The notes beneath the pieces are model-generated. The model was not told where the DNA came from. It made no database searches and worked only from the letters and a program-made list of their open reading frames with translations. DNA of 64,000 nucleotides, taken from the NCBI GenBank assembly GCA_964617645.1, contig CAZTYE010000007.1, forward strand, positions 88,203 through 152,202, in the 5' to 3' direction. This DNA comes from an uncultured Ignavibacteria bacterium. GTDB taxonomy: Bacteria; Zixibacteria; MSB-5A5; CAIYYT01. Positions within the stretch are counted from its first letter, which is position 1; every line of letters starts with the position of its first letter. Both the position numbers and the translations under genes were made by a program. Below, piece by piece: positions 20,750 through 61,997 of this stretch.

Positions 20750-20777
20750 TAAAATACTGTGAGCAAGCCGCCGATAA
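20750..20777 (+). promoter_or_regulatory. putative sigma-28 (FliA) promoter TAAAATAC-N12-GCCGATAA upstream of CheY-like gene
   Basis: Perfect GCCGATAA -10 box at 20770-20777. -35-like TAAAATAC. Sits ~27 nt upstream of ATG 20804, with RBS AGGAGGG between. Confidence 0.4.
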
Positions 20778-20803
20778 TATAGAGCAGGAGGGTAGACTCA
20801 CAC

Positions 20804-21178
20804 ATGCCAAAGCAAGATTGTAAAGTACTGATCGTCGATGACTTCGGCAATACCGCAAAGGTGTTGAGCGAGATGTTCAGTCACTTACACGTGAACACGG
20901 ATGCCGCCGAGACTCCCGAAGAAGCCTTTATCAAGTTGAAGGCGCGCAAGTACGAGTTGGTGATCGCCGATTCGCGAATGCCGAAAGTCGACGGAGTCAG
21001 TCTGCTGAAGGAGATCCGCTCCAGTAATCCAACCACGAAAGTGGCCGTCATGTCCACTTTTGATTCCGGGCAGACGCATAAGATGGTCGTTGCCGACGGC
21101 ATCGACTATTATCTGCCCAAGCCGGTCAAGCTCATCCATATCCAGCAAATGCTTGATAAACTGAGCCTGAATTTGTAA
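20804..21178 (+). CDS. single-domain response regulator (CheY-like receiver)
   Basis: KVLIVDDF…, phospho-acceptor Asp context LVIADSRMPKVDG, conserved T/K residues; 124 aa. Confidence 0.8.
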   Translation: MPKQDCKVLIVDDFGNTAKVLSEMFSHLHVNTDAAETPEEAFIKLKARKYELVIADSRMPKVDGVSLLKEIRSSNPTTKVAVMSTFDSGQTHKMVVADGIDYYLPKPVKLIHIQQMLDKLSLNL

Positions 21179-23292: not shown

Positions 23293-23427
23293 TCCTTCAG
23301 GATCAGGCGATGTGCTCCAGTTCCGGCGCAACGGGACTTTATCGACGACTGGAGCCCGAGCGTTTCGGCTGCAAGAGGTTCATTTTCTGGTAATTGCGGG
23401 ACAAAAGAAGCCGATAATTCCAACATC

Positions 23428-24216
23428 ATGTCGACCGAAAGCCTGTTGTCAGTCTACGCGCTCGCTTTGGGCGCATTCATCGGCTCATTTCTGAACGTCT
23501 TGATTTATCGCCTGCCCCGTCAAGAAAACTTTGTTGCCGGTCGATCCCATTGCCCTCATTGTGGCCTTGTCATTCGCTGGTACGACAACATTCCGCTAAT
23601 CAGTTTTCTGTTGCTCCGCGCGAAATGTCGCAATTGCAAGGCGAACATATCTTGGCGCTATCCGATCGTCGAGCTTCTCACGGCCCTCTTCTTCCTCATG
23701 GCTTTTCGCCTTTATGGGCTCGATTTCCAAGCGCTGATTGCTGCGGTTTTGTTTGCCATGCTTCTCGTGGTGACCTTTATCGATTTCGAGTACCTCATCA
23801 TTCCTGATCGCATCACCTATCCGGGCATGGCCCTCGGCGTCGTCCTTTCGTTTGTGAGTCCGCTCATCACACCGCTGGAATCGATTATCGGCTTGCTGGC
23901 GGGAGGCGCGACTCTCTATCTGCTGGCCGTGGTTGGCGATAAGATGCTCAAGAAAGAATCGCTGGGCGGCGGCGACATCAAATTGGCGGCGATGTTAGGC
24001 GCCTTTCTCGGGTGGAAAAACATTTTCATAATTTTCTTCGGCGCCGCGCTATTGGGTCTGATTTACGCTCTGATTCGCATGGCGTTGGCGCGGCATTCCG
24101 CGGTCGGTCGGATGATTCCGTTCGGGCCGTTCTTGGCGGCGGCCGCGATGTTGGCCTTCTTCTTCGGCCATCGCCTGCTCGACTTTTACTTCACCCGCGT
24201 GCTTGCCCTCAACTAA
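23428..24216 (+). CDS. pilD: type IV prepilin peptidase (A24 family)
   Basis: N-terminal TM then a CPHCG…CRNC zinc-finger-like motif; GGGDIKL active-site region; 262 aa. Confidence 0.85.
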   Translation: MSTESLLSVYALALGAFIGSFLNVLIYRLPRQENFVAGRSHCPHCGLVIRWYDNIPLISFLLLRAKCRNCKANISWRYPIVELLTALFFLMAFRLYGLDFQALIAAVLFAMLLVVTFIDFEYLIIPDRITYPGMALGVVLSFVSPLITPLESIIGLLAGGATLYLLAVVGDKMLKKESLGGGDIKLAAMLGAFLGWKNIFIIFFGAALLGLIYALIRMALARHSAVGRMIPFGPFLAAAAMLAFFFGHRLLDFYFTRVLALN

Positions 24217-24284
24217 CGAAAATCGTTCCACCCGGTTGCACAATCACCGTGCGGTGAGTTCTCGCTCGCGCCGATAAAGACGAT

Positions 24285-26195
24285 ATGAGCGCAAACTCCA
24301 ATCCGGGCGAAAGCCTTCTGCAACGACTGGGCATTACCTACGAGATTCGCATTCGGATCACGCTCGGTCTGCTCTTCATTCTCATCGTAATCGCCAACCT
24401 GAATTCGCTCCGATTCTTCAATCAAACGATCTCGTTGGAAGAGGAAAATCAACGACAGCAAATCGCGCAAAATCTTAATCTCATCGCAGCCACGTTGCGC
24501 AGTGGGCCGATCGAGCGCCTGCAGAGTTCGGCTGTTCGCGATCTGGCAGCGGCGGCGGGCTTTGACCGACTGCTGATCGTCGAGACCGATTTGCTGCGCG
24601 ACACCGTCTCCGGCCACAGCGACTTTCTCACTGACGAGAAATTGCGCGAGATCAGGCGGCTCTACACTCTGCCGAAGACCATTGCCGGCGGCATCCGCAA
24701 TGCGTTGCCTTCGACGATCAGCGAGACCTTCTCCGCTCCCGACGGTCAGACCTATCGTAATGCCTACTTTCACTTTCTCGGCTTCGACGGCAGGCCGTTG
24801 ACTTTGGTGGCATGGTTTGATGCTGCAGTCATCGCTGAACTGGAAAGATTCGCTCTCTTCAACACGCTGTTTCAGATCGTGAGTTTGCTTGCAGCGTCGG
24901 CCATCGCGCTACTGCTGTTAAAAATAACGTTTCGACCTTACGAACAAATCAAGAGTGAAGCAATTGCCGCCGACGTGGCGCAGACAGACAAACCCGAAGC
25001 TGTCGACTTTGCCGTCACTGCTTTTCATAACGTCATCGCCGAACTTCGCGCCAAAGAAGCCAAACTTCAGGACCTGTATGCCGAGCAGAAGCAACGCGCT
25101 GCCAGCTTGGAGCGCTACAACGAGTACGTACTCCGGGCCATGCCGACCGGGGTAATCAGTTGTGATGTGGAAGGGAAGTTGACGCGCCTGAACGAAGCCG
25201 GAGAATCGATTCTGGGATTGAATTCAGCGACGGTAATCGGCCAGCACTATCAGAATGTCCTCCGGCCATTTGCGCAACTGGCGGACCTCTTCACAATAAT
25301 TCTTCTGCGATCGGAATCAACGGCGGCGGCGGAGATCGAACTCAAGAGCACGACCGGTAAACGCCTGGCGTTGAGCGTCACCGGGTCGCCGCTTCGCGAC
25401 GCCTCCCAGCAGGTACAGGGCGCGATGATCCTGCTTACCGATCTGTCGGAGTTGCGTAGTCTGGAAGCCCAGATGCGGCTCAACGAACACATGGCGGCGT
25501 TGGGAGAAATGTCCGCCGGGCTGGCGCACCAATTGCGGAACTCGATGGGGGCGATTGTCGGTTTCGCACAACTCCTGAACAAGATTGGAGCTGCCGGCAC
25601 CGCTGCCGGGATCGCCGACAATATTCTTGCCGAAGCGCGACTGACCGGTGAAATGCTCGATCGTTTTCTCAGGCTTTCGCGGCCAAGCGAGCTGGCGCTT
25701 TCCGAAGTTAACTGGCGCGACCTAATCGACGGTGTGGCTCGTCAATTCGAAGGCATACTCCAAAGTAGAAGGCTGAAACTCCGATTGAGCATTGCCGATC
25801 TCCTGCCGGCGCTGACCGGGGACGTCGTCCTACTGAGCAACACACTGGCGAACTTGCTTCACAACGCAATACAAGCCTCGACGAACGACTCCGAGATCGT
25901 CATCGCTATTGACCACGACAACGTCGCCGGGTGCATCGAAATACGTGTTGTCGACTACGGTCGGGGAATCCCCGATGCGGACATTGACAAGCTGTTTACT
26001 CCGTTTTTCACCTCCGGTAAAGCCGGCGGCACCGGACTTGGGTTGGCGCTGGCGCAAAAGTGGGTTAATGCTCATGGCGGCCGTATCCTGGTTTCCTCGA
26101 AACTCGGCCAAGGCACGACTTTCCGTATCCAGTTGCCGACACCGCGCCAAGGCGCCAACACGGCAGAGAAGATATTGCTTGCCAACAACGGCTAA
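24285..26195 (+). CDS. PAS-domain sensor histidine kinase
   Basis: Two TM segments flank a periplasmic region. PAS region (…VISCDVEGKLTRLNEAGESILGL…). HisKA H-box HQLRNSMGAI. HATPase_c motifs (N-box LLHNAIQAS, VVDYGRGIP, GGTGLGLAL). Confidence 0.8.
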   Translation: MSANSNPGESLLQRLGITYEIRIRITLGLLFILIVIANLNSLRFFNQTISLEEENQRQQIAQNLNLIAATLRSGPIERLQSSAVRDLAAAAGFDRLLIVETDLLRDTVSGHSDFLTDEKLREIRRLYTLPKTIAGGIRNALPSTISETFSAPDGQTYRNAYFHFLGFDGRPLTLVAWFDAAVIAELERFALFNTLFQIVSLLAASAIALLLLKITFRPYEQIKSEAIAADVAQTDKPEAVDFAVTAFHNVIAELRAKEAKLQDLYAEQKQRAASLERYNEYVLRAMPTGVISCDVEGKLTRLNEAGESILGLNSATVIGQHYQNVLRPFAQLADLFTIILLRSESTAAAEIELKSTTGKRLALSVTGSPLRDASQQVQGAMILLTDLSELRSLEAQMRLNEHMAALGEMSAGLAHQLRNSMGAIVGFAQLLNKIGAAGTAAGIADNILAEARLTGEMLDRFLRLSRPSELALSEVNWRDLIDGVARQFEGILQSRRLKLRLSIADLLPALTGDVVLLSNTLANLLHNAIQASTNDSEIVIAIDHDNVAGCIEIRVVDYGRGIPDADIDKLFTPFFTSGKAGGTGLGLALAQKWVNAHGGRILVSSKLGQGTTFRIQLPTPRQGANTAEKILLANNG

Positions 26196-31295: not shown

Positions 31296-33260
31296 ATGGC
31301 CGACCTGCTGAGATCAATAAACAACCCGAAGGACCTGCAGAAGCTCCCGCTTGAATCGTTGCCGCAGTTGGCGTCCGAAGTTCGCGAGGAACTGCTCTCG
31401 GTTTTATCTCAGGTAGGCGGGCATCTCGGCGGCAATCTCGGTGTCGTCGAATTGACGATTGCGCTGCATTATGTCTATGACAGCCCCACTGACCGTTTGG
31501 TCTGGGACACAGGCCACCAGAGCTATGTGCACAAGATACTGACCGGCCGGCGCGATCAACTCAAAACTATTCGTCAGATGGGCGGGCTTTCCGGGTTTGC
31601 GAAAATCACCGAGTCCGAGCACGATGTTTATGGCGCCGGCCACGCTTCGACCTCGATCTCTGCGGCTTTCGGCATGGCCGTGAGTCGCGATTTGTCGGCG
31701 CAAAAACACCACGTCGTTGCCGTTATTGGCGACGGCTCGATGACGGGTGGCATGGCCTTTGAGGCGCTGAACAATTTGGGACATTCCGGCCGCAACATGC
31801 TCGTGGTGCTTAACGACAACTCGATGTCGATCGACAAGAACGTCGGCGCGCTCAACGAGTATCTCACCGAGATGCGCACCGACGAAACCTACAACAAGAT
31901 CAAGGATCACATCTGGGCATTGACCGGAAAGCTGAGCAAAGGTTCGAAAATCCGCGAAGTTGTCGGCCGGATCGACGACGCCGTTAAAGGCGCTCTGGTT
32001 CCCGGCGTGTTTTTCGAGAAACTCGGACTGCGTTACTTCGGCCCGATCGATGGTCACGATGCGCTTGGTCTGGTGAAAACTCTCAGCCATATCAAAGCGC
32101 TTCACGGCCCCATGGTTCTTCATATCCGCACGCAGAAGGGTAAGGGTTACGCCCCCGCAGAAGCCGACGCATGCTGCCTGCATGGTGTCAGCAAGTTCGA
32201 TAAAGTCACCGGAAAATCCGAGAAGACGGGCGGTGTCGCCTACACCAAAGTATTCGGCAAGACAATGGTCGAACTCGGTAAGCTGCATCCGGATTTGGTG
32301 GCTATTACGGCCGCGATGCCGACGGGCACCGGTTTGAGTGAATTTGCCGGCGAGTTTCCGGATCGATTCTTTGATGTCGGCATTGCAGAAATGCACGGCG
32401 CGGTGTTTGCCGCGGGCTTGTCTCGCGAAGGTAAGAAACCGGTGTTCGCCGTTTACTCGACATTTTTGCAGCGTGCATACGATCCTGTGATCCACGATCT
32501 TGCGCTTCAGCATCTGCCGGTGATCTTGGCCCTTGATCGCGCCGGATTAGCCGGCAACGACGGTCCCACGCATCATGGCACGTTCGACATTTCGTACCTG
32601 CGCCCGGTACCCGGCATGGTGATTGTCGCCCCACGCGACGGTACCGAGTTGCGCCAGGCATTGCACCTGGCGGTGGCGAATCTCGCGACGCCGACGGCGA
32701 TAAGGTGGCCGCGTGCTGACATCCCGGAAGCAGCGCTTGATATGAATCGTCCAATGTTCGAGTGGGGAACCTGGGAGGCGCTTGAAGTCGGTGATGACGT
32801 CGCCATTCTCGCGGTTGGAACGATGGTCGAGCAGTCGCTTCAGGCAAGGGCTTTGCTGATGGAGCAAGGGATTAATGCGGCGGTGATCAATTGCCGATTT
32901 GTTAAGCCGTTTGATGAAGCGCGGCTGGTCGAAATTGCCTCGCGATATTCGCGTCTGGTCACGGCGGAGGAAGGCTCTTTGATCGGCGGATTTGGATCGG
33001 GAATCAACGACTGGCTTGCCGATCGGGGGCTTAGCCAGATCAAGTTGTTGCGCTTGGGAATTCCTGATAATTTCGTCGAGCACGGCAGCCGCGAGCAGCT
33101 ATTAGAGATGCTTGGCTTGCACGCCCAAGGCATTGCCGACGCGATCAAACGCTTCGTCGGCGCTGCCGGGACGCGCAGTGGCGCAATCAGAGGTATCGAG
33201 TCGTCGGCAGTCGTCAATCGCATCGCCGACTTAGGGGTCTCGAGCAAAGGCAAGAAGTGA
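31296..33260 (+). CDS. dxs: 1-deoxy-D-xylulose-5-phosphate synthase
   Basis: TPP-binding GHxGxxLG region (GGHLGGNLGVVELTIALHYV), transketolase-like domains. ~30-aa C-terminal extension relative to typical Dxs. Confidence 0.9.
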   Translation: MADLLRSINNPKDLQKLPLESLPQLASEVREELLSVLSQVGGHLGGNLGVVELTIALHYVYDSPTDRLVWDTGHQSYVHKILTGRRDQLKTIRQMGGLSGFAKITESEHDVYGAGHASTSISAAFGMAVSRDLSAQKHHVVAVIGDGSMTGGMAFEALNNLGHSGRNMLVVLNDNSMSIDKNVGALNEYLTEMRTDETYNKIKDHIWALTGKLSKGSKIREVVGRIDDAVKGALVPGVFFEKLGLRYFGPIDGHDALGLVKTLSHIKALHGPMVLHIRTQKGKGYAPAEADACCLHGVSKFDKVTGKSEKTGGVAYTKVFGKTMVELGKLHPDLVAITAAMPTGTGLSEFAGEFPDRFFDVGIAEMHGAVFAAGLSREGKKPVFAVYSTFLQRAYDPVIHDLALQHLPVILALDRAGLAGNDGPTHHGTFDISYLRPVPGMVIVAPRDGTELRQALHLAVANLATPTAIRWPRADIPEAALDMNRPMFEWGTWEALEVGDDVAILAVGTMVEQSLQARALLMEQGINAAVINCRFVKPFDEARLVEIASRYSRLVTAEEGSLIGGFGSGINDWLADRGLSQIKLLRLGIPDNFVEHGSREQLLEMLGLHAQGIADAIKRFVGAAGTRSGAIRGIESSAVVNRIADLGVSSKGKK

Positions 33261-34126
33261 TGCGTTTCGGCATCATCGCCAATCGTAAACGCCCCAACGC
33301 CGATCAGGTTATCAAGCGGGCGCTCAACTGGCTCTCTGCAAACGATCATGAGTACCTGCTCGCGGACGATCTCAGGGAGTTCGCGCCGAAGAACGGCGTA
33401 ACAATCTCGCGCAAGCTGCTCGCCGAGCATTGCGACATGATTATATCGATGGGCGGCGACGGCACGCTTCTGGCGGCGGCCCGCGACGTAGCGCCGCGCG
33501 ATGTGCCGATTCTCGGAATCAATCTTGGATCACTCGGCTTTCTGACGCAGATTGCGGCCGACGAGGTCGAAACGAGGCTGGCGGAAGTCGTCAGCGGGCG
33601 GCACCAGATTCAAAAGCGGATGCTGCTCGAGGCCGTCGTTGTCGGCGATCAATCCGAATCCAAGTATTTTGCGCTGAATGATGTTGTAGTCGATCGCGGG
33701 AGTTTGGCGCGACTGGTGCAACTTGACTTGTATGTGAACGACGAGTTCATTTGTACATACCGTGCCGACGGTTTAATCATCTGCACGCCGACCGGCTCGA
33801 CAGCCTACAATTCGGCAGTCGGCGGCCCGATTCTGAATCCGAACATGGAAGCGATGGTGGCATCACCGATGGCGCCGCAATCGCTGGCGGCGCGGCCGCT
33901 GCTGTTCGCGGCAGACGATGTCATTCTGATTCGCATTTCTTCACCGCAGCATACTTGTCTGATGAGTGTTGATGGCCAGGTCTCGGTCAATCTGACAAAT
34001 CACTCCGCCGTTGTAATCCGAAAGGCCGCCTTCTCCACGAAATTAGTTACTTTCTCGCACAACTCCTTTTACCAGATCCTGCGAAAGAAGCTCCACTGGG
34101 CAGTTTTGCCCCGAAGCGAAAACTGA
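33260..34126 (+). CDS. nadK: NAD(+) kinase
   Basis: GGDGTLL, NDVVV and DGLIICTPTGSTAYNSAVGGPIL motifs. ATG overlaps the dxs stop. Confidence 0.85.
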   Translation: MRFGIIANRKRPNADQVIKRALNWLSANDHEYLLADDLREFAPKNGVTISRKLLAEHCDMIISMGGDGTLLAAARDVAPRDVPILGINLGSLGFLTQIAADEVETRLAEVVSGRHQIQKRMLLEAVVVGDQSESKYFALNDVVVDRGSLARLVQLDLYVNDEFICTYRADGLIICTPTGSTAYNSAVGGPILNPNMEAMVASPMAPQSLAARPLLFAADDVILIRISSPQHTCLMSVDGQVSVNLTNHSAVVIRKAAFSTKLVTFSHNSFYQILRKKLHWAVLPRSEN

Positions 34127-34170
34127 TCGCAAAGCCGGTTGCATTTGCGACTTCCCGTCCACCGAATCAG

Positions 34171-34196
34171 CTAAGTTCGCCGCCGTTTCCTGCCGA
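34171..34196 (+). promoter_or_regulatory. putative sigma-28 promoter (cTAAGTTc-N13-GCCGATAA)
   Basis: Perfect GCCGATAA at 34189-34196 with a TAAGTT -35-like element upstream. Sits ~37 nt upstream of ATG 34233. Confidence 0.35.
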
Positions 34197-34232
34197 TAAA
34201 CTCAGAGACAGGACTGAGGAGCATTGGCATTA

Positions 34233-34442
34233 ATGCGTGAAACGAGAGCTACCACCAAGTGCAAATATACGGACGTTTGTTACTTGGCCGAAGCGCTTCA
34301 GTGCTACGGTTACAAGTTGGACTGCATACTATACACCGAGACCAACGGTGTGCCGGTTACAGAAGAAGAATTTCATGCGGCCATCAATCAACTGATCGAT
34401 AAAGCGAAAGCCGAAGACTTCTACAAAGCCTTCAGTAAGTAG
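34233..34442 (+). CDS. small hypothetical protein (69 aa, 4 Cys), low GC relative to neighbours
   Basis: MRETRATTKCKYTDVCYLAEALQCYGYKLDCILYTETNGVPVTEEEFHAAINQLIDKAKAEDFYKAFSK. ORF GC ~47% against ~60% locally. Flanked by sigma-28-like and sigma-54-like elements. Confidence 0.35.
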   Translation: MRETRATTKCKYTDVCYLAEALQCYGYKLDCILYTETNGVPVTEEEFHAAINQLIDKAKAEDFYKAFSK

Positions 34443-34561
34443 ATTCGTTCTCTTGTGCGGGAATTCCTTTCCGCACCGCACGACATATCAGCGCCAGTCA
34501 CCAGTCATTCACAATTCTCAACCAGATCAAGTTCAACGACTTGCGTTCCCGATGCCGCGTT

Positions 34562-34577
34562 CGGCACGGGGCTTGCC
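34562..34577 (+). promoter_or_regulatory. putative sigma-54 promoter (cGGCACG-N4-TTGCc)
   Basis: GG (34563-4) and GC (34575-6) spaced exactly as in TGGCACG-N4-TTGCW. Sits 22 nt upstream of the flgF ATG. Confidence 0.5.
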
Positions 34578-34598
34578 TTGCTCAGTGCGGAGTAATGC

Positions 34599-35324
34599 AT
34601 GATTAAGGGAATTTTCTCAACCGCCGCCTCGATGATTCCGCGCGTGAAGCAGCAGGAAGTTATCGCCAACAATCTCGCCAATGCCGAGACCGTCGGCTAC
34701 AAGCGCGATTCGCTATTCATGCGCATGGTCAAAAACCAAATGGGACTCAGGGAACGGTTGGCGCCGTCATGGGAGACGCGAATGATCGACAAGCTGTATA
34801 CCGATTATGCGAGCGGCGCATTGGATGCCACCGGTCGCGAACTCGACCTCGCCATTCAAGGCGACGGGTTCTTCACGGTCTTGACGCCAAACGGCGAGGC
34901 GTATACGCGCAACGGCGCGTTCAACGTCGGCGCCGATGGAATGCTGGTCAACTCCGACGGCTTTCCAGTGTTAACCGACGGCGGTCCGGTCGTTCTTCAG
35001 GGCAGCTCACTGACAGTTGCACAGGATGGCCAGATCTCAGTCGGCAATCAGGTTGTCGGCAAGCTGCGCATCGTCGATTTCGTCGAGCCGGAGAGCATCA
35101 AGAAGGTCTCAGGCTCGTTGTTCACGCTCAACCCCGGCGCGGTGCCCGTGACGCCGCAGCAACTGAACGTACGCCAAGGCTATCTCGAAAAATCGAATGT
35201 CGACGTACTGCGCGAGATGGCCAACATGATCGACTCCTACCGCCGCTTCGAGACCGGCCAGAAGATGATCCAGATTCAGGATGACACGCTCGGGAAAGCT
35301 GTCAACGAGCTACCGCGAGTTTAA
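34599..35324 (+). CDS. flgF: flagellar basal-body rod protein FlgF
   Basis: N-terminal rod motif SMIPRVKQQEVIANNLANAETVGYK. C-terminal flg_bbr_C-like YLEKSNVDVLREMANMI. Confidence 0.8.
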   Translation: MIKGIFSTAASMIPRVKQQEVIANNLANAETVGYKRDSLFMRMVKNQMGLRERLAPSWETRMIDKLYTDYASGALDATGRELDLAIQGDGFFTVLTPNGEAYTRNGAFNVGADGMLVNSDGFPVLTDGGPVVLQGSSLTVAQDGQISVGNQVVGKLRIVDFVEPESIKKVSGSLFTLNPGAVPVTPQQLNVRQGYLEKSNVDVLREMANMIDSYRRFETGQKMIQIQDDTLGKAVNELPRV

Positions 35325-35337
35325 GGAGTAGATAGTC

Positions 35338-36126
35338 ATGATTAGATCACTGCGTACCGCAGCTTCGGGCATGATGGCCCAACAAATGAATGTCGATAAC
35401 ATCGCGAACAATCTCGCGAACGTTAATACCACCGGCTTCAAGAAGTCGAAGGTCGAATTTCAGGACATCATGTATCAGAGCCTGCGCAAGCCGGGTGTCA
35501 CGGCGGCAACGGGAGCAATCGTGCCGACCTCGCTCGACATCGGTTACGGCACGCGTCCCGTCGCGACTACGAGGCAATACTCGGTCGGTGAGCTGTCACA
35601 GACCGGGAATCCGCTTGATGTGGCCATCGACGGTGACGGATTTTTCCAGATTCAAAAGACCGACGGCACTACGGCGTTCACGCGCGACGGTAGCCTCAAG
35701 TTGACAGCTGACGGCAGATTGGCCACCTCGGACGGGTTTTATCTCACTCCAGAGATCACGATTCCTGAAGACGCCGTGTCGATCGCAATCGGCTTTGACG
35801 GTCAAGTGTCGGTTGTTCAGGCCGGTTCCAATGACCCGCAGGAAATTGGCCAGATCGAACTCGCGCGATTCATCAATCCGGCCGGGCTTTCGGCAATTGG
35901 GCATAACCTCTACGAAGAAACACCGTCCTCCGGTGCGCCAATCACGGGAGCCGCCGGCGAAAACGGCTTTGGCAAGATCAATCAGGGCTATCTGGAAATG
36001 TCCAATGTCGACGTCGTGACGGAAATGGTGAATATGATCGTGGCGCAGCGCGCCTATGAAATCAACTCGAAAGCGATTCAGACGGCGGATGACATGAGCA
36101 GTCTGGTCAATAACCTGAAGCGCTAA
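35338..36126 (+). CDS. flgG: flagellar distal rod protein FlgG
   Basis: MIRSLRTAASGMMAQQMNVDNIANNLANVNTTGFKKSKVEFQD; C-terminal GYLEMSNVDVVTEMVNMIVAQRAYE; 262 aa. Confidence 0.85.
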   Translation: MIRSLRTAASGMMAQQMNVDNIANNLANVNTTGFKKSKVEFQDIMYQSLRKPGVTAATGAIVPTSLDIGYGTRPVATTRQYSVGELSQTGNPLDVAIDGDGFFQIQKTDGTTAFTRDGSLKLTADGRLATSDGFYLTPEITIPEDAVSIAIGFDGQVSVVQAGSNDPQEIGQIELARFINPAGLSAIGHNLYEETPSSGAPITGAAGENGFGKINQGYLEMSNVDVVTEMVNMIVAQRAYEINSKAIQTADDMSSLVNNLKR

Positions 36127-38588: not shown

Positions 38589-39478
38589 TCAAGATCAATC
38601 CGTTGCCGCAACCGCTGGAAGTCAAATCAGCCGGGCCAATATTCGACGAAAGCTCTCAACGACGCCTGAAGCTCAAGCAGGCGACACAGGCCTTTGAGTC
38701 GATCTTCATTGCCGAACTGCTCAGGAACATGCGAGCGAGTTCGCTGATCGAGAAGAAAGAGGATGGGTTTGGCAAGGACATCATGATGGCAATGGCCGAT
38801 GAAGGCGTCGCACGGCAATTGGCCAAGTCGGGCATGTTTGGTATCGGCGAGAAGCTCTATCGGAATCTCGTGAAGCGCATTGACGCCGGTAATGAACCAG
38901 CGAGCAAGCTCAAGATCACTCAACCACGCCAAATTGACGGCATCGCGCCACCAATTGCACCAAAGATCGCAAACGTATCCGGCGCCGAACAAACAATCGC
39001 CGCGAGGGAGACTGAACAGCCGACACAAGCCACGGTCGTCAAGTCACAAGTCGCCAAAGAAGCAACACCGCGAAGTTCGCATCCGAGCCTCCAAAAATTC
39101 ATCAAGCACATCGAATCCGCCGCCGCAGCGAACGATCTTCCGGTTGATCTACTGGAAAAAATCATCATACAAGAGTCCGCGGGCAACTCCCGTGCGATTT
39201 CACCGAAAGGCGCAGTCGGCCTGATGCAGTTGATGCCGGACACGGCGCGAGCGGTGGGAGTGCGCAATCGCTTTGATCCGGCGCAAAACATTCACGGCGG
39301 GGCGCGTTATCTCCGCCAGATGATCGATCGTTTCGGCGATTTGGAACAGGCGATTGCCGCCTACAACGCCGGACCGGGAAATGTCGTGAAATACGGCGGA
39401 GTGCCGCCCTTTGCTGAGACGCAGGATTACGTACGCACTGTGCTCGGCGACCGATCGGCTGCTCCGACAGTTAAGTAA
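38585..39478 (+). CDS. flgJ: FlgJ-like rod-binding protein fused to SLT-type lytic transglycosylase domain
   Basis: N-terminal rod-binding motif LKQATQAFESIFIAELLRNMRAS. C-terminal SLT motifs ESAGNSRAISPKGAVGLMQLMP…AYNAGPG. Confidence 0.7.
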   Translation: MIKINPLPQPLEVKSAGPIFDESSQRRLKLKQATQAFESIFIAELLRNMRASSLIEKKEDGFGKDIMMAMADEGVARQLAKSGMFGIGEKLYRNLVKRIDAGNEPASKLKITQPRQIDGIAPPIAPKIANVSGAEQTIAARETEQPTQATVVKSQVAKEATPRSSHPSLQKFIKHIESAAAANDLPVDLLEKIIIQESAGNSRAISPKGAVGLMQLMPDTARAVGVRNRFDPAQNIHGGARYLRQMIDRFGDLEQAIAAYNAGPGNVVKYGGVPPFAETQDYVRTVLGDRSAAPTVK

Positions 39479-39519
39479 ACAACGCCGATTTCCGACAAGA
39501 TTAGTGAAGAGGAACCGCT

Positions 39520-40023
39520 TTGGATAACAAGGTCTTACAACTAATCAAGCTGATTGGCGAGGAAGTCCACATTTTTGAGACTTTCCTTGAACACCTCAAC
39601 CGCCAGCAGGATGCGCTGGTAGCGAACGACATCACGGCACTCGAGGCGGTTACCCGCGATCAGGAGGAATTGGGTCTGCGTACTCAGCAGCTCGAACAAG
39701 AACGTCGCGCCCTGGTGACGGCGATCTGCGGAGAACTGAAGCGCGGTGACTCGGACATCACTCTCAGCGAATTGCGCAAGCTCGTGAGCGAACCGGAATC
39801 CATGCAAATTCACGCCATGCAGTCAACACTGCTATCGCTTCATGATCAGATTGCCAAGATCAAGCAGCGCAATGATTTTCTGATCCGCAAATCCATGGAG
39901 TATATCACCGACACAATAAACCATCTTGGTCTGGCTGAGACGCCTGCGAAAGCGGCCTATACGGTCGAATCGGTGCGCACGACTCCGTTCGTGAAAACCT
40001 CGTTGGTGGATCGGAGAGCGTAG
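39520..40023 (+). CDS. putative FlgN-like flagellar export chaperone
   Basis: 167-aa helical protein immediately upstream of flgK (conserved synteny). TTG start with RBS GAAGAGGA. No motif-level confirmation. Confidence 0.45.
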   Translation: MDNKVLQLIKLIGEEVHIFETFLEHLNRQQDALVANDITALEAVTRDQEELGLRTQQLEQERRALVTAICGELKRGDSDITLSELRKLVSEPESMQIHAMQSTLLSLHDQIAKIKQRNDFLIRKSMEYITDTINHLGLAETPAKAAYTVESVRTTPFVKTSLVDRRA

Positions 40024-41426: not shown

Positions 41427-41765
41427 TTGCTCATTCTAACAAGGAAGTTAGGCGAGTCCATCACGATCGGCGATAACATCAAAGTTACGGTGTTGGGCAT
41501 TTACGGCCGCCAGGTGCGACTCGGCATCGACGCGCCGCTGAAGGTTGTCGTACACCGCGAAGAAGTGTACGTCAAGATTCAGCAGGAGAATCGCAAAGCT
41601 GCGCAGGCGGCCAAGAAGGACCTGATGTCGGTCGTGACGATGCTCCGCAACAAGTTCAAGGGCGAGATCAAGGACTCCGGCGAACAAAAATCGGAGCTTG
41701 AATATCGCGACAACAAAGGCAAGAAGGACCGCAACGACGATCGCAGACCGGAATCAAAACGATAA
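41427..41765 (+). CDS. csrA: carbon storage regulator CsrA with ~50-aa charged C-terminal extension
   Basis: [25 protein letters not shown]…GIDAP core, TTG start with RBS GGAGGG. 112 aa against a typical 60-75. Confidence 0.85.
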
Positions 41766-43853: not shown

Positions 43854-44333
43854 ATGGAACTGCAAACGCGTCAATTTGGAATGATTCAGGTCGCCGAAGG
43901 CGAAATCCTCTCCGTCCCACGGGGGCTGCTCGGCTTCGAGGGCTTTGAGCGCTTCGTCTTGATCGACTCGCCCGACTGCCGGCCGTTCCGCTGGTTGCAG
44001 TCGGTCGACGCGCCCGACCTGTCCTTCGTAGTCGTCAATCCGACCGTGTTCTTTCCCGAATACCGGGTGACGGTACATGCCAAGGAAGTTGCCGATATCA
44101 ATGTTGCGCAGCCACAGGACGTAGAAATCTTCGTCATCGTCACCGTGCCGGAACACTGGGAAGAGATGTCGGCCAACCTGCAAGGGCCCATCTTGATAAA
44201 TCGGCGCAACAATAAGGTCAAGCAATTAGTGCTGACCGACTCGAGCTACGGCGTGCAGCATTCGATTGCCCGCCAGTTGGAACGCACTCGCGTCGAGGTC
44301 GCATCGGGAAACGCGATCGTTACAATTTCGTAA
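43854..44333 (+). CDS. fliW: flagellar assembly factor FliW (CsrA antagonist)
   Basis: MELQTRQFGMIQVAEGEILSVPRGLLGFEGFERFVLIDSPD…PFRWLQSVD signature; 159 aa. Confidence 0.85.
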   Translation: MELQTRQFGMIQVAEGEILSVPRGLLGFEGFERFVLIDSPDCRPFRWLQSVDAPDLSFVVVNPTVFFPEYRVTVHAKEVADINVAQPQDVEIFVIVTVPEHWEEMSANLQGPILINRRNNKVKQLVLTDSSYGVQHSIARQLERTRVEVASGNAIVTIS

Positions 44334-49659: not shown

Positions 49660-50678
49660 TTTCAGGAAAGACGATTTTCATTACCGGCGGCGCCGGGTTC
49701 ATTGGCTCGGCGCTGGCAGAACGGCTGGTCGAGGATAATCGCATAATCATTTATGATAATTTCCGGCGCAATTCGCTTGTCGACAAGTCTTGGCTGTCGT
49801 CGCACCGCAACATCGAACTGGTCGCTGGCGACATTCGCGATCGCGGCGCGCTCACGCATGCCATCGCCGGCGCAAACATCGTGATTCACGCGGCGGCGAT
49901 TGCCGGTGTCGACTCGGTGCTTCGCGACCCGGTGGGGACAATGGAAGTCAATGTCATCGGCACCTACAATGTGTTCATGACGTGCCTCGAATCCTGCGGG
50001 CGGCTGGAGCGTGTAATCGACTTTTCAACCAGCGAAGTATTTGGCGCTTACGCCTACAAAGTCACCGAAGAGAACCTCAAGCCGGCGCTCACCGTTGGTG
50101 AGGCACGCTGGTCTTATGCCGTCAGCAAACTGACCGGCGAGTTCTTCGCCAACAGTTTTTTCAGCAAACACGGGCTGCCGATTGTCTGCGTGCGGCCGTT
50201 CAATATTTATGGACCGGGCCAAGTCGGCGAAGGCGCCATTCACCATTTCGTCGTGAATGCCATTCAAAATCGCGACCTGACAATTCATGCCGACGGCAGC
50301 CAAATTCGCGCCTGGTGTTACATCGACGATATCCTCGACGCGCTGGTGGAAATTCTCTCCAACGATCGCGCCATCGGTCACGCATTCAACATCGGCAATC
50401 CGAAAAGCACGGTCACGATTTATCATCTCGCCCGCGAAGTCATCCGCGTGGCACAGTCGCGATCGGGATTGGTGTTCAAGGAGATGACCTCGCCGGACGT
50501 CGAAGTGCGCATTCCGGACATCCACAAGGCCCGCGAAATACTGGGATTTGAGCCGTTAGTCGAGTTAGAGGATGGTCTCAAGCGGACAATCGACTGGTAT
50601 CGACAGAAGCTCAACGGCGGTCTTGAACCGCGTCGCCGCGCACTGAAAATCAAAGAGGGAATTGGCCATGCCGTCTAA
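49656..50678 (+). CDS. NAD-dependent sugar epimerase/dehydratase (extended SDR)
   Basis: Rossmann motif FITGGAGFIGSALAERL and catalytic YxxxK (YAVSK). Confidence 0.85.
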   Translation: MISGKTIFITGGAGFIGSALAERLVEDNRIIIYDNFRRNSLVDKSWLSSHRNIELVAGDIRDRGALTHAIAGANIVIHAAAIAGVDSVLRDPVGTMEVNVIGTYNVFMTCLESCGRLERVIDFSTSEVFGAYAYKVTEENLKPALTVGEARWSYAVSKLTGEFFANSFFSKHGLPIVCVRPFNIYGPGQVGEGAIHHFVVNAIQNRDLTIHADGSQIRAWCYIDDILDALVEILSNDRAIGHAFNIGNPKSTVTIYHLAREVIRVAQSRSGLVFKEMTSPDVEVRIPDIHKAREILGFEPLVELEDGLKRTIDWYRQKLNGGLEPRRRALKIKEGIGHAV

Positions 50679-51705
50679 AATCACACTTGCCGCAAAACCG
50701 TGGGAACGCTTCTATGGATTTGCCAACGACAACGACAAGATTTTCCCCAACATGGTGCATCTGGATCTGATTAATATCTGCAACTTTCGATGTATCCACT
50801 GTCCTCAGCACGATATCAAGAAGTTTGTGCCCGACTACCAGCAAAACCAACTGGATTGGGATGTCTTCACCCGCGTCATCGACGAAGTCGCCGAACATGG
50901 CGCGACACTGCGCATTACCTGCGACGGTGAGCCATTCCTCTACAAGCACATCGTTAAAGCGATTCACTACATCAAGGATCGTGGCGTCAAAATCGCTACG
51001 ATCGTGACTAACGGTAGCGCGCTGAGCAAGCCAATTGCCGAGGCGATCCTGCGGCCTTCCGCGACGAAACTCGTCATCGACTTCAGCCTCGACAGCCTGT
51101 ACAAGTCGACTTACGAGAAAATCCGCCTGCAGGGGAACTTCGTTGAAGTGTACAGCAATGTGCTGTTCCTGCTGAAAAATCGATCGCTGAATCCTAATCT
51201 GCGCATCATCGTAAACATGATTGATCAAGACACTTTGGAAGCAGGCGAGCTGGAATCATTTGAGAAATTCTGGCGCCCGATCGCGGACGACGTGGTTGTG
51301 CGCACGTATCTCACGGTCAAGGGTATGGTCAACTCTTCGACTCTGCGGATGGATGATGACCAATATCGCTGGCCCTGCTCCTTGCTTTGGAATCGCATTT
51401 CGGTGTCGTCGCACGGTCGGCCGCGATTTTGCGTCGCCGATTGGCGTGAACAGTCGGCTTTTCGCGACTTCGACTTGCTCAAGATGTCAATCAAGGAAAT
51501 CTGGCAATCGGATCGCTACGATAAGTTGCGAAAGATCCATCTTGACAGGGAATTCTCGAAAATCAGGATTTGCGAACACTGCACCGATTGGTTCGGTCTG
51601 AAGTGGGATTATGACTACCGCACGTTGATTGACAAGCTCTTCGCCCCGAAGGAGCGCATCTCTGAAGCGTCCCGGATCTCAGTGGAGGCTCCGGTCAATG
51701 TCTGA
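50668..51705 (+). CDS. radical SAM enzyme with C-terminal auxiliary Cys cluster (SPASM/twitch-like)
   Basis: CNFRCIHCPQ (CxxxCxxC). C-terminal Cys-rich block CSLLWNRISVSSHGRPRFCVADW…ICEHCTDW. Confidence 0.75.
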   Translation: MPSKITLAAKPWERFYGFANDNDKIFPNMVHLDLINICNFRCIHCPQHDIKKFVPDYQQNQLDWDVFTRVIDEVAEHGATLRITCDGEPFLYKHIVKAIHYIKDRGVKIATIVTNGSALSKPIAEAILRPSATKLVIDFSLDSLYKSTYEKIRLQGNFVEVYSNVLFLLKNRSLNPNLRIIVNMIDQDTLEAGELESFEKFWRPIADDVVVRTYLTVKGMVNSSTLRMDDDQYRWPCSLLWNRISVSSHGRPRFCVADWREQSAFRDFDLLKMSIKEIWQSDRYDKLRKIHLDREFSKIRICEHCTDWFGLKWDYDYRTLIDKLFAPKERISEASRISVEAPVNV

Positions 51706-55459: not shown

Positions 55460-55486
55460 TTTAGGGGCGTTCACTTGTGCCGATAA
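55460..55486 (+). promoter_or_regulatory. putative sigma-28 promoter for fliC (weak -35 TTTAGGGG, N11, perfect -10 GCCGATAA)
   Basis: GCCGATAA at 55479-55486. Predicted ~200-nt 5'UTR containing several GGA motifs, including AGGAGGA at the RBS. Confidence 0.4.
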
Positions 55487-55699
55487 TCTGAGCGTAAGAA
55501 AAAGTGAATCGATAGGGTTCATACGGTAACAGAAAAGAGGTCTACGCATCCAAACGGACCCCACTAACCGGGGACCACAAGCGGTTAGAAGGTCGAGTTG
55601 CTCCGGCCTTGGCAAACATCGGACGTCGCTGAATGCAGCGAGCAGTAGTAGAAATGTCGGAAACGGAATCCGACAGGGAAATTCAAGGAGGATGGTTAA

Positions 55700-60769: not shown

Positions 60770-61204
60770 ATGAATCGACAGCTCACGCACTATCAGAAGG
60801 CACAAGTCGACGGTTCAAGTCAGCGTGATTTGATAGTGATGTGCTACAAGGGCGGCATCAAGTATCTTCTCGATGGTCGGGAGAAGCTGAATAACGCCGA
60901 CGTTGCCGGTTTCTCCGAATGTATCGAGCGCACGCACCGCATTGTCTTTCATCTGTACACGACGCTCGACATGAATCAGGGCGGCGAGATTGCCCAGCGC
61001 CTCGCTGACTTGTACGTCTACATGATAAACCAGCTCTACCTTTTGAATGCGACAAAGAACGATGAATTGTTTGACGGATTGATTCGCGTCCTGACCACCC
61101 TCAAGGAAGGCTGGGAGCGGATCGATAACCATGGTATAGACGGGGCACCACTGGGGAGTCGCGCGTCGGAAACCAACGCGCAAGTTGTATCTGTAAAGAT
61201 CTGA
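60770..61204 (+). CDS. fliS: flagellin-specific export chaperone FliS
   Basis: YQKAQVDGSSQRDLIVMCYKGGIKYL…LADLYVYMINQL signature. Confidence 0.85.
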   Translation: MNRQLTHYQKAQVDGSSQRDLIVMCYKGGIKYLLDGREKLNNADVAGFSECIERTHRIVFHLYTTLDMNQGGEIAQRLADLYVYMINQLYLLNATKNDELFDGLIRVLTTLKEGWERIDNHGIDGAPLGSRASETNAQVVSVKI

Positions 61205-61211
61205 GGCGGAA

Positions 61212-61664
61212 ATGGAATACAGCGACGTAACGAAACTTGAGGCGCGTCTGGTGGCCGGCTTGAAGGAAGAATACTCCTTCTACCAATCACTCTTTATCAT
61301 TATTGACAAGCAGCGCGATTATATCAAGTACGACAAAGAGCAGAAAATCGTCGATCTCTACGGCGAGGTCGAACGCATCGTCCAGCGGATCAATGAGTCG
61401 GAAGCGGCTGTGGCCCAATTGAAAAACGAGAACAAGACACTATTCGGATTGGCCGCCTCGGCGCCGGAAGTGCGGCGATTGGTCAACTCGATTACAACGC
61501 TTATTGCGAAAACGCTGAAGCTTGTGCAGGAGAACGAAGAAATCGCCCAGGCCAAATACGACCAGATCAAGGACCATCTGGTGCAGTTGCAGAACGGTCG
61601 CAAGGTGAGCGATTATTTCACAATACCGCAAGCTTCGCCGCAATATGTCGATAAAAAACATTAG
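61212..61664 (+). CDS. hypothetical helical protein in the FliT/FlgN position
   Basis: 150 aa, coiled-coil-like. Lies between fliS and flgM. No diagnostic motif. Confidence 0.35.
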   Translation: MEYSDVTKLEARLVAGLKEEYSFYQSLFIIIDKQRDYIKYDKEQKIVDLYGEVERIVQRINESEAAVAQLKNENKTLFGLAASAPEVRRLVNSITTLIAKTLKLVQENEEIAQAKYDQIKDHLVQLQNGRKVSDYFTIPQASPQYVDKKH

Positions 61665-61679
61665 GGGGCGACAGAACCA

Positions 61680-61997
61680 ATGACCGTAAATCGTGTAGGA
61701 CCGGGTGGCTTGCCGCCGCTCGGAGACGATATGGGCAAGAGAAAATCTCAGGCTGTCAAGACGCGGCAGGATGCCGGCCAAAATCCGCCGGTAACAGCGG
61801 CTGCCGACAGCGCCGGCGCGCCGACAAAGCCCAAGCCGGCGACGGATGAGTACGTCTCGACGCGATCAAACAATGAAGCGCCGTTGCGCTCGGACAAACT
61901 CGCCCATGCGCGCCGCATGATCGAGAACGGTTCGTACAATGATCCCAAAGTAATCGCCGAGATTATTGATCGGCTGATGCATGCCTTGAAAAGCTAA
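61680..61997 (+). CDS. flgM: anti-sigma-28 factor FlgM
   Basis: ~105 aa, disordered N-terminal half. C-terminal KLAHARRMIENGSYNDPKVIAEIIDRLM matches the FlgM C-terminal helices. Confidence 0.65.
   Translation: MTVNRVGPGGLPPLGDDMGKRKSQAVKTRQDAGQNPPVTAAADSAGAPTKPKPATDEYVSTRSNNEAPLRSDKLAHARRMIENGSYNDPKVIAEIIDRLMHALKS

Follow-up and report, generated by a model that had tools for sequence, protein, structure and literature searches.

Detailed knowledge of flagellar gene hierarchies is limited to a few cultured phyla. The enterobacterial sigma-28 consensus is TAAAGTTT-N11-GCCGATAA, and the promoter read by the B. subtilis sigma-28 (SigD) is TAAA-N15-GCCGATAT. Here, we analyzed a small gene that lies upstream of flgF in the window, by which we mean the whole 64,000-nt stretch of DNA under study. 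When compared with class 3/class IV promoters of sigma-28, the predicted -10 element of this gene matches at 8/8 positions and the logo of its family shares the two-block geometry, but the -35 block in the window is TAAGTTCG and the spacer is one base longer. The layout in most relatives, with the box 7–8 nt before the start codon, is unusual when set against the late flagellar genes of model organisms.

The product resembles several described proteins in part. Like FlgM, it is small, apparently sigma-28-driven and encoded in a flagellar region. Four invariant cysteines and a conserved N-terminal core distinguish it from FlgM, which is disordered and cysteine-free. The WhiB-like (Wbl) proteins of Actinobacteria are four-cysteine [4Fe-4S] proteins of ∼80–120 aa that bind a sigma factor. 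By analogy rather than homology, our protein is similar in size, carries four cysteines on the N-terminal side followed by helices, is lineage restricted and could plausibly bind a partner. Its cysteines are spaced C-x5-C-x7-C-x6-C, unlike the Wbl C-xn-C-x2-C-x5-C, and it belongs to another phylum. No match to Pfam Whib (PF02467) was found for 31 family members, and the G[VI]WGG turn is absent. Small modulators of sigma-54 enhancer-binding proteins in flagellar and type III hierarchies (Caulobacter FliX-FlbD, Pseudomonas FleN-FleQ, and HrpV/HrpG-HrpS) offer another parallel, as the small gene sits beside a sigma-54-dependent structural operon and is placed to link one assembly stage to the expression of another. 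The small protein has no sequence relationship to them. Lastly, E. coli flxA and ynjH and the Campylobacter FspA and Fed proteins are sigma-28 regulon members outside the core flagellar structure, as our protein appears to be. Unlike these narrow, species-level additions, the family of the small protein spans a phylum-level group, keeps one flagellar position and is under strong purifying selection.

The promoter class and small sigma-28-regulated accessory genes are already well known, whereas this family of proteins has not been described before. Notable features are that a candidate phylum keeps it at a single flagellar position and that its sigma-28 geometry is predicted to be leaderless. 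The locus gives a first sequence-level picture of a flagellar hierarchy in Zixibacteria-type bacteria: a rod and ring operon with a predicted sigma-54 promoter and a phased upstream site; sigma-28-type promoters on cheY-like, FlgM-like and flagellin genes; and a four-cysteine protein whose gene stays with the rod and ring operon no less firmly than the core genes do. The features that we discuss are the following.

34172–34179, plus strand: predicted sigma-28 -35-like element TAAGTTCG, with a spacer one base beyond the TAAAGTTT-N11 geometry
34192–34199, plus strand: predicted sigma-28 -10 element GCCGATAA, 8/8 match, invariant in relatives, top score of the position weight matrix (PWM)
34201–34221, plus strand: 5′ leader hairpin CUCAG[AGACAGGA]CUGAG (34201–34218) from RNA folding, overlapping GAGGAG at 34216–34221
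34233–34442, plus strand: gene for the four-cysteine small protein, 69 aa, with C10, C16, C24 and C31 and a C-terminal helix at about 44–67
34460–34472, no strand assigned: GGAATTCCTTTCC inverted repeat, candidate upstream activating site of the flgF promoter, 102 nt upstream of the -24 element
34562–34577, plus strand: predicted sigma-54 (-24/-12) promoter CGGCACGGGGCTTGCC of the flgF operon, a conserved box (alignment A1)
34599–35324, plus strand: flgF (proximal rod), first gene of the operon, from Pfam matches and synteny across loci

The small ORF encodes a conserved protein

The translation of the ORF is identical to the 69-aa sequence reported in the initial annotation and to database protein P0001. 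An alternative start at TTG 34224 was rejected, being only 2 nt from the Shine-Dalgarno sequence, and the relatives all start at the ATG. A word-indexed search yielded four close relatives only. When a profile of these four was used in an exhaustive HMMER search, we obtained ∼31 clusters at 50% identity with proteins of 66–123 aa, and a second profile search gave 204 clusters at 90% identity, all labeled "hypothetical" and each without a Pfam domain. Long repeat proteins returned by the exhaustive search (P0032–P0041) were discarded as repeat artefacts, in which, for instance, "LDCLRYLHENGCPW" units match KLDCILYTETNG.

Pairwise dN/dS was 0.04–0.08 for pairs with unsaturated dS, and variable columns within the window's clade were distributed 32/23/63 over the three codon positions. 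This low ratio and the excess of third-position changes indicate that the ORF is a genuine protein-coding gene under strong purifying selection. The reading frame, whose conservation the initial annotation had left to comparison with related genomes, is kept together with the length of the protein in >50 species. Such selection at the protein level also means that the ORF is more than a spacer.

The composition of the gene was first taken as a possible sign of recent acquisition, and here our results diverge from the initial annotation. The ORF is 46.7% GC, in agreement with the ∼47% first given, but the background is 55.8% GC for the window and 53–59% for neighboring genes rather than ∼60%. 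Likewise, the codons described as rare-looking prove ordinary: the CAI-like index of the ORF, 0.709, is close to the mean of the window, 0.713 (z = -0.11). We found the GC deficit at codon positions 1 and 2 (0.46 and 0.36), so it reflects amino acid composition. Among homologues, the GC content of the ORF tracks that of the host, from 30% in genomes of 39% GC to 59% in genomes of 61% GC, and is nearly always lower than the host's by a steady ∼5–8 points. Because GC follows the hosts, codon usage is average and the position is the same in 48/54 species across the phylum, we reject recent horizontal acquisition.

A genome scan with an alignment of eight family sequences, taking one genome per species, located 54 homologue loci. 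All 54 come from metagenome-assembled genomes (MAGs) labeled Zixibacteria/Zixiibacteriota, GN15, Calditrichota, FCB group or, in TPA assemblies, "Ignavibacteria". Searches of the small protein and 31 family members against Pfam and NCBIfam gave nothing beyond a meaningless 12.9-bit HxsB match, PDB sequence searches with 4- and 86-sequence profiles gave zero matches, and a literature search found nothing on the family. The remark that the protein belonged to no recognizable family thus stands, and as judged from these searches the family is undescribed and found only in Zixibacteria-type (FCB-group) MAGs.

The consensus sequence of the family reads RCAYxxxCYLAExLxCxGYKxDCxLYxxSNG-x7-FxxAMDxLIDKTxAK, with C10, C16, A19, L22, C24, G26, D30, C31, Y34, F47, L54 and I55 invariant across 86 sequences. 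An aromatic residue follows each of the four cysteines, and ∼10 variable, basic residues precede the first. We found no signal peptide and no hydrophobic segment in the small protein, which is consistent with a cytoplasmic location. Four invariant cysteines spaced 5–7 residues apart in a cytoplasmic protein would most simply form a metal or Fe-S site. The CxxC pairs that define zinc ribbons and the two-knuckle DksA-TraR type are absent, and no known zinc or Fe-S motif matches the distances between the cysteines. AlphaFold2 models reached pLDDT values of 48 with 4 sequences and 55 with 86 sequences, too low to use. In the 86-sequence model, a helix at 44–67 had moderate confidence and the cysteine region was not resolved, which would fit cofactor-dependent folding. 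When an AlphaFold2 model was compared with the PDB by Foldseek, matches appeared only at E > 4.

A sigma-28-type promoter is conserved ahead of the small gene

The initial annotation had described a sigma-28-like promoter with a TAAGTT -35-like box, some 37 nt upstream of the ATG at 34233. Our analysis bears this out. TAAGTT is present at 34172–34177, and the exact GCCGATAA box starts 41 nt and ends 33 nt before the ATG, so that the distance first given is a fair one. There are 7 occurrences of GCCGATAA in the window, where 2.0 are expected. In six aligned close relatives, the box is invariant and the TAA of the -35 block is invariant at a fixed spacing, with flanking DNA that has diverged and cannot be aligned.

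The promoter logo from 37 distant loci reads cT[C/A]A[A/G]TTTT-N11-(t)GCCGATAw, which fits the geometry of the enterobacterial consensus. In the window, the -35 block matches that consensus at 4/8 positions, has a 12-nt spacer and contributes +4.7 bits as a half-site when the PWM is given a spacer longer by one. Using a PWM trained on distant relatives only, with the window's clade left out, we found that the site at 34192 outscores every other one in the 64-kb window, with both strands counted. Its score, 20.1 bits, is above background and was reached by 1/20 Markov shuffles. Under strict criteria, a sigma-28-type box was present in 46/54 species loci. We therefore predict that the small gene carries a phylogenetically conserved promoter of the sigma-28 (FliA) type.

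Leader geometry and a possible CsrA arrangement

The distance from this promoter to the start codon varies within the family. A GCCGATAw-type box ends exactly 7–8 nt before the ATG in 35/54 loci, all distant from the window, and lies 20–45 nt from it in 11 loci that include the window's clade. At sigma-28 promoters, transcription starts ∼6–8 nt past the -10 box. Taken together with the 7–8 nt spacing, this predicts leaderless mRNAs in most relatives. The gene in the window does not fall into this class, as it has a 33-nt leader with a GAGGAG Shine-Dalgarno sequence (34216–34221). Within its clade, leaders are 31–38 nt long with a GGAG Shine-Dalgarno.

In the window, the leader hairpin places a GGA in its loop and folds with -10.7 kcal/mol (z = -2.7). 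This matches the layout of a CsrA target, with one GGA in the loop and another in the Shine-Dalgarno sequence, but the hairpin is not conserved in the clade, the spacing between the GGA motifs is short and leaderless mRNAs are predicted for most relatives. The clade keeps GACAGGA and AGGAGC motifs, but of its members only the window and one relative (L004) show the hairpin. A two-site arrangement of the CsrA type is possible at 34201–34221. Both csrA (41427–41765, between flgK and flgL) and fliW (43854–44333, after flgL) are encoded in the cluster. The presence of these genes and the GGA layouts in the leaders of the small ORF and of flagellin suggest CsrA-FliW translational control of late genes. 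The flagellin leader (55487–55699, 213 nt) ends in a hairpin with a GGA in its loop, followed by a AAGGAGGA Shine-Dalgarno sequence.

The small gene is linked to the flgF operon

Before the small ORF, the gene order is ispA, dxs and NAD kinase; after it come flgF, flgG, flgA, flgH, flgI, an SLT/FlgJ-like gene, flgN, flgK, csrA, flgL and fliW. Downstream of fliW we found a glycosylation island, flagellin, flaG, fliD, fliS, a FliT/FlgN-like gene, a FlgM-like gene and an HDOD gene. A radical SAM/SPASM-domain protein, which may act on sugars or peptides as a modifying enzyme, is encoded at 50662–51705, within the glycosyltransferase-rich island between fliW and flagellin; we found nothing that connects it to the Cys-rich small protein.

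The contexts of the 54 homologue loci are as follows.

46/54 loci: flgF at most 300 nt downstream, then flgG-flgA-flgH-flgI; median gap 173.5 nt
2/54 loci: flgF farther off
3/54 loci: the contig ends before any downstream gene
3/54 loci: a citryl-CoA-lyase-like gene on one side and pgk-tpiA-secG on the other

Synteny with flgF is therefore widespread: flgF is downstream in 48/54 species loci, or 48/51 informative ones. On the other side of the small ORF the neighbor varies, being NAD kinase in the window, BCCP in L001 and an opposite-strand gene in L004. Since the flgF side is fixed and the upstream side is not, the conserved unit is the small gene plus the flgF operon. Near-identical flagellar clusters, with FlgG 85–92% identical to that of the window, occur in MAGs (loci L006–L059) that are labeled inconsistently as "Ignavibacteria", "Zixibacteria", "GN15" or "bacterium".

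Between the small ORF and flgF lies a predicted promoter of another kind. The pattern GGCAC-N5-TTGC occurs only twice in the window, and almost all related loci have a TGGCAC-N5-TTGCw-like box at a distance of 21–26 nt from the start of flgF. With this sigma-54 box before flgF and a sigma-28 box before the small gene, the two would be transcribed by different sigma factors. Further upstream, rGAA-N5-6-TTCC is present in one or two copies in 30/49 loci against 0.4 expected, with phased positions of -124/-102 or -112/-90 relative to the -24 element; the copy in the window is at -102. GGAA-N5-TTCC looks like a candidate enhancer-binding-protein site of Zixibacteria flagellar genes, one that is apparently undescribed.

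The site at 34460–34472 also forms an RNA hairpin, which has no U-tract. Its sequence conservation and 22-bp phasing to the promoter argue for a DNA site rather than a terminator. No terminator was called between the small ORF and flgF in the window, and we rejected the idea that the hairpin is an intrinsic one. As most loci have no clear terminator before flgF, the conserved tandem arrangement could exist as much for the sake of the promoter, by way of read-through or interference, as for that of the protein, and read-through from the sigma-28 promoter into flgF is possible.

Predicted role of the small protein

The initial annotation had proposed a late-class flagellar or chemotaxis accessory protein, or a small regulator. 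The real gene, its sigma-28-type promoter and its fixed position uphold the late-class flagellar part of this proposal. The function itself is read from context, and we found no specific support for a role in chemotaxis. Because the frame is conserved and the promoter scores above background, a late-class accessory or regulatory protein stays the best reading. Our prediction, held with moderate confidence, is that the small gene encodes a cytoplasmic, metal-binding accessory or regulatory factor of the late flagellar class. Its expression would come late, once completion of the hook-basal body frees sigma-28. In most relatives, it would proceed from a leaderless mRNA, with the -10 box ending 7–8 nt before the AUG; in the window's clade, the leader (33 nt in the window), with its Shine-Dalgarno and GGA motifs, could permit control by CsrA. 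The N-terminal ∼35 residues would fold around a metal ion or Fe-S cluster held by the four invariant cysteines, and the conserved, amphipathic C-terminal helix would offer a surface for protein contact.

What such a factor might do is a matter of speculation. The likeliest role, though by itself a doubtful one, is that of a low-abundance regulatory or assembly factor acting through protein-protein contact after late expression begins, for example by feedback on the adjacent rod and ring operon that depends on sigma-54 and an enhancer-binding protein. The fixed location of the gene ahead of this operon makes such feedback appealing as a hypothesis. More specifically, it could be a phylum-specific, Wbl-like small Fe-S (or zinc/thiol) sensor, produced at a late stage of flagellar assembly, that binds part of the transcription machinery (sigma-28, sigma-54 or the enhancer-binding protein of the flagellar genes), thereby coupling redox or metal status to the flagellar hierarchy, a proposal that we consider a long shot. 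Were it a regulator or assembly factor, the protein would be a new part of a machine that has been studied in great depth; with an Fe-S cluster bound, it could link motility to redox conditions in sediment anaerobes; and if the Wbl-like proposal were true, it would represent a new class of flagellar checkpoint regulator, made mostly from a leaderless sigma-28 transcript. A modest practical gain is that ∼200 "hypothetical" clusters can be annotated as flagellum-associated and sigma-28-regulated.

The alternative that survives best, which we nevertheless judge unlikely, is that the protein has a general, non-flagellar role in metal or redox handling and that conservation at this locus concerns chiefly the sigma-28 promoter, which would give late read-through into, or interference with, the flgF operon. 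Three species speak for it, as they keep the gene beside pgk-tpiA (L024 460–681, L026 5998–6207, and L031 6001–6222). In these loci the citryl-CoA-lyase-like neighbor is on the opposite strand, flagellar genes were not found nearby and no sigma-28 box was found upstream of the family member, but the proteins keep all conserved residues. The small protein may thus have a role beyond flagella. The rarity of a hairpin followed by a T-tract before the sigma-54 promoter (9/50 loci, none in the window) would also suit read-through. On the other hand, linkage to flgF persists in 48/51 informative loci over deep divergence while the other flank varies, and such persistent gene linkage normally reflects functional coupling.

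A late flagellar-export substrate, secreted or periplasmic with two disulfides and possibly associated with rod or ring, is a less probable explanation still. Campylobacter secretes small sigma-28-dependent proteins through its flagellum, and this precedent, the sigma-28 control, the position beside rod and ring genes, the even number of invariant cysteines with adjacent aromatics and the short, variable, basic N-terminus would all fit. However, a signal peptide is absent, the ∼10 residues before the conserved domain are short for a flagellar export signal, and rod and ring assembly comes before sigma-28 activity. Leaderless mRNAs further suggest low expression, and homologues occur in three non-flagellar contexts.

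We think it very improbable that the protein is an anti-sigma-28 factor, that is, an analogue of FlgM that holds FliA until the hook-basal body is done. Small size, sigma-28 control like that of flgM in model organisms and a site in the flg cluster would agree with this, as would the lack of a FlgM gene in the customary position ahead of flgN, between the end of the SLT gene at 39478 and the flgN start at 39520. Against this, a separate FlgM-like gene is present at 61680–61997, following fliS (60770–61204) and the FliT/FlgN-like gene (61212–61664). A separate GTCGATAA box, at 61647, lies 25 nt upstream of this FlgM-like gene and ranks third in the PWM scan. The 105-aa product of the gene gave a full-length but weak match to TIGR03824 FlgM (E = 0.032) and no Pfam match; it shares R-x-(E/D)K(I/L)A...IENGSY with B. 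subtilis FlgM, with a pairwise E of 6e-5. This ORF is probably FlgM, which argues against an anti-sigma-28 role for the small protein. Moreover, the small protein gave no match to PF04316 or TIGR03824 and no alignment with B. subtilis FlgM, and an invariant Cys4 core sets it apart from FlgM, which is disordered and competent for export.

Finally, the shortness, low GC and lack of a family match might suggest that the sequence ahead of flgF is no gene but an ORF due to chance, or else an RNA or cis-regulatory element. This reading is refuted by the comparative data on selection, frame and length, and with zero Rfam matches in 33000–36000 and with a promoter and upstream site for flgF located downstream of the ORF, it has practically no chance of being correct.

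Other sigma-28-type boxes in the window

Further boxes of this type occur elsewhere in the window, and those before the cheY-like, flagellin and FlgM-like genes have plausible targets of sigma-28 behind them. In the region 20770–21178, a promoter-like TAAA-N16-GCCGATAA site, with the box at 20770 and an AGGAGGG Shine-Dalgarno sequence after it, precedes the gene for a CheY-like receiver, a single-domain response regulator of 124 aa. This gene, ∼13 kb from the flagellar cluster, is likely a further member of the sigma-28 regulon. Another exact GCCGATAA, at 55479, is 213 nt upstream of flagellin.

Two other exact GCCGATAA boxes, in the regions 24270–24287 and 23410–23430, end 7 nt before ATG 24285 of a PAS histidine kinase and 10 nt before ATG 23428 of a prepilin peptidase, respectively. 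Both have a near-leaderless geometry like that of the small-protein family; a convincing -35 block was not seen at either, and these boxes may be due to chance. Lastly, GCCGATTT at 39484–39491, 28 nt before the flgN start and with no clear -35 block, is a possible internal late promoter for flgN-flgK-csrA-flgL-fliW.
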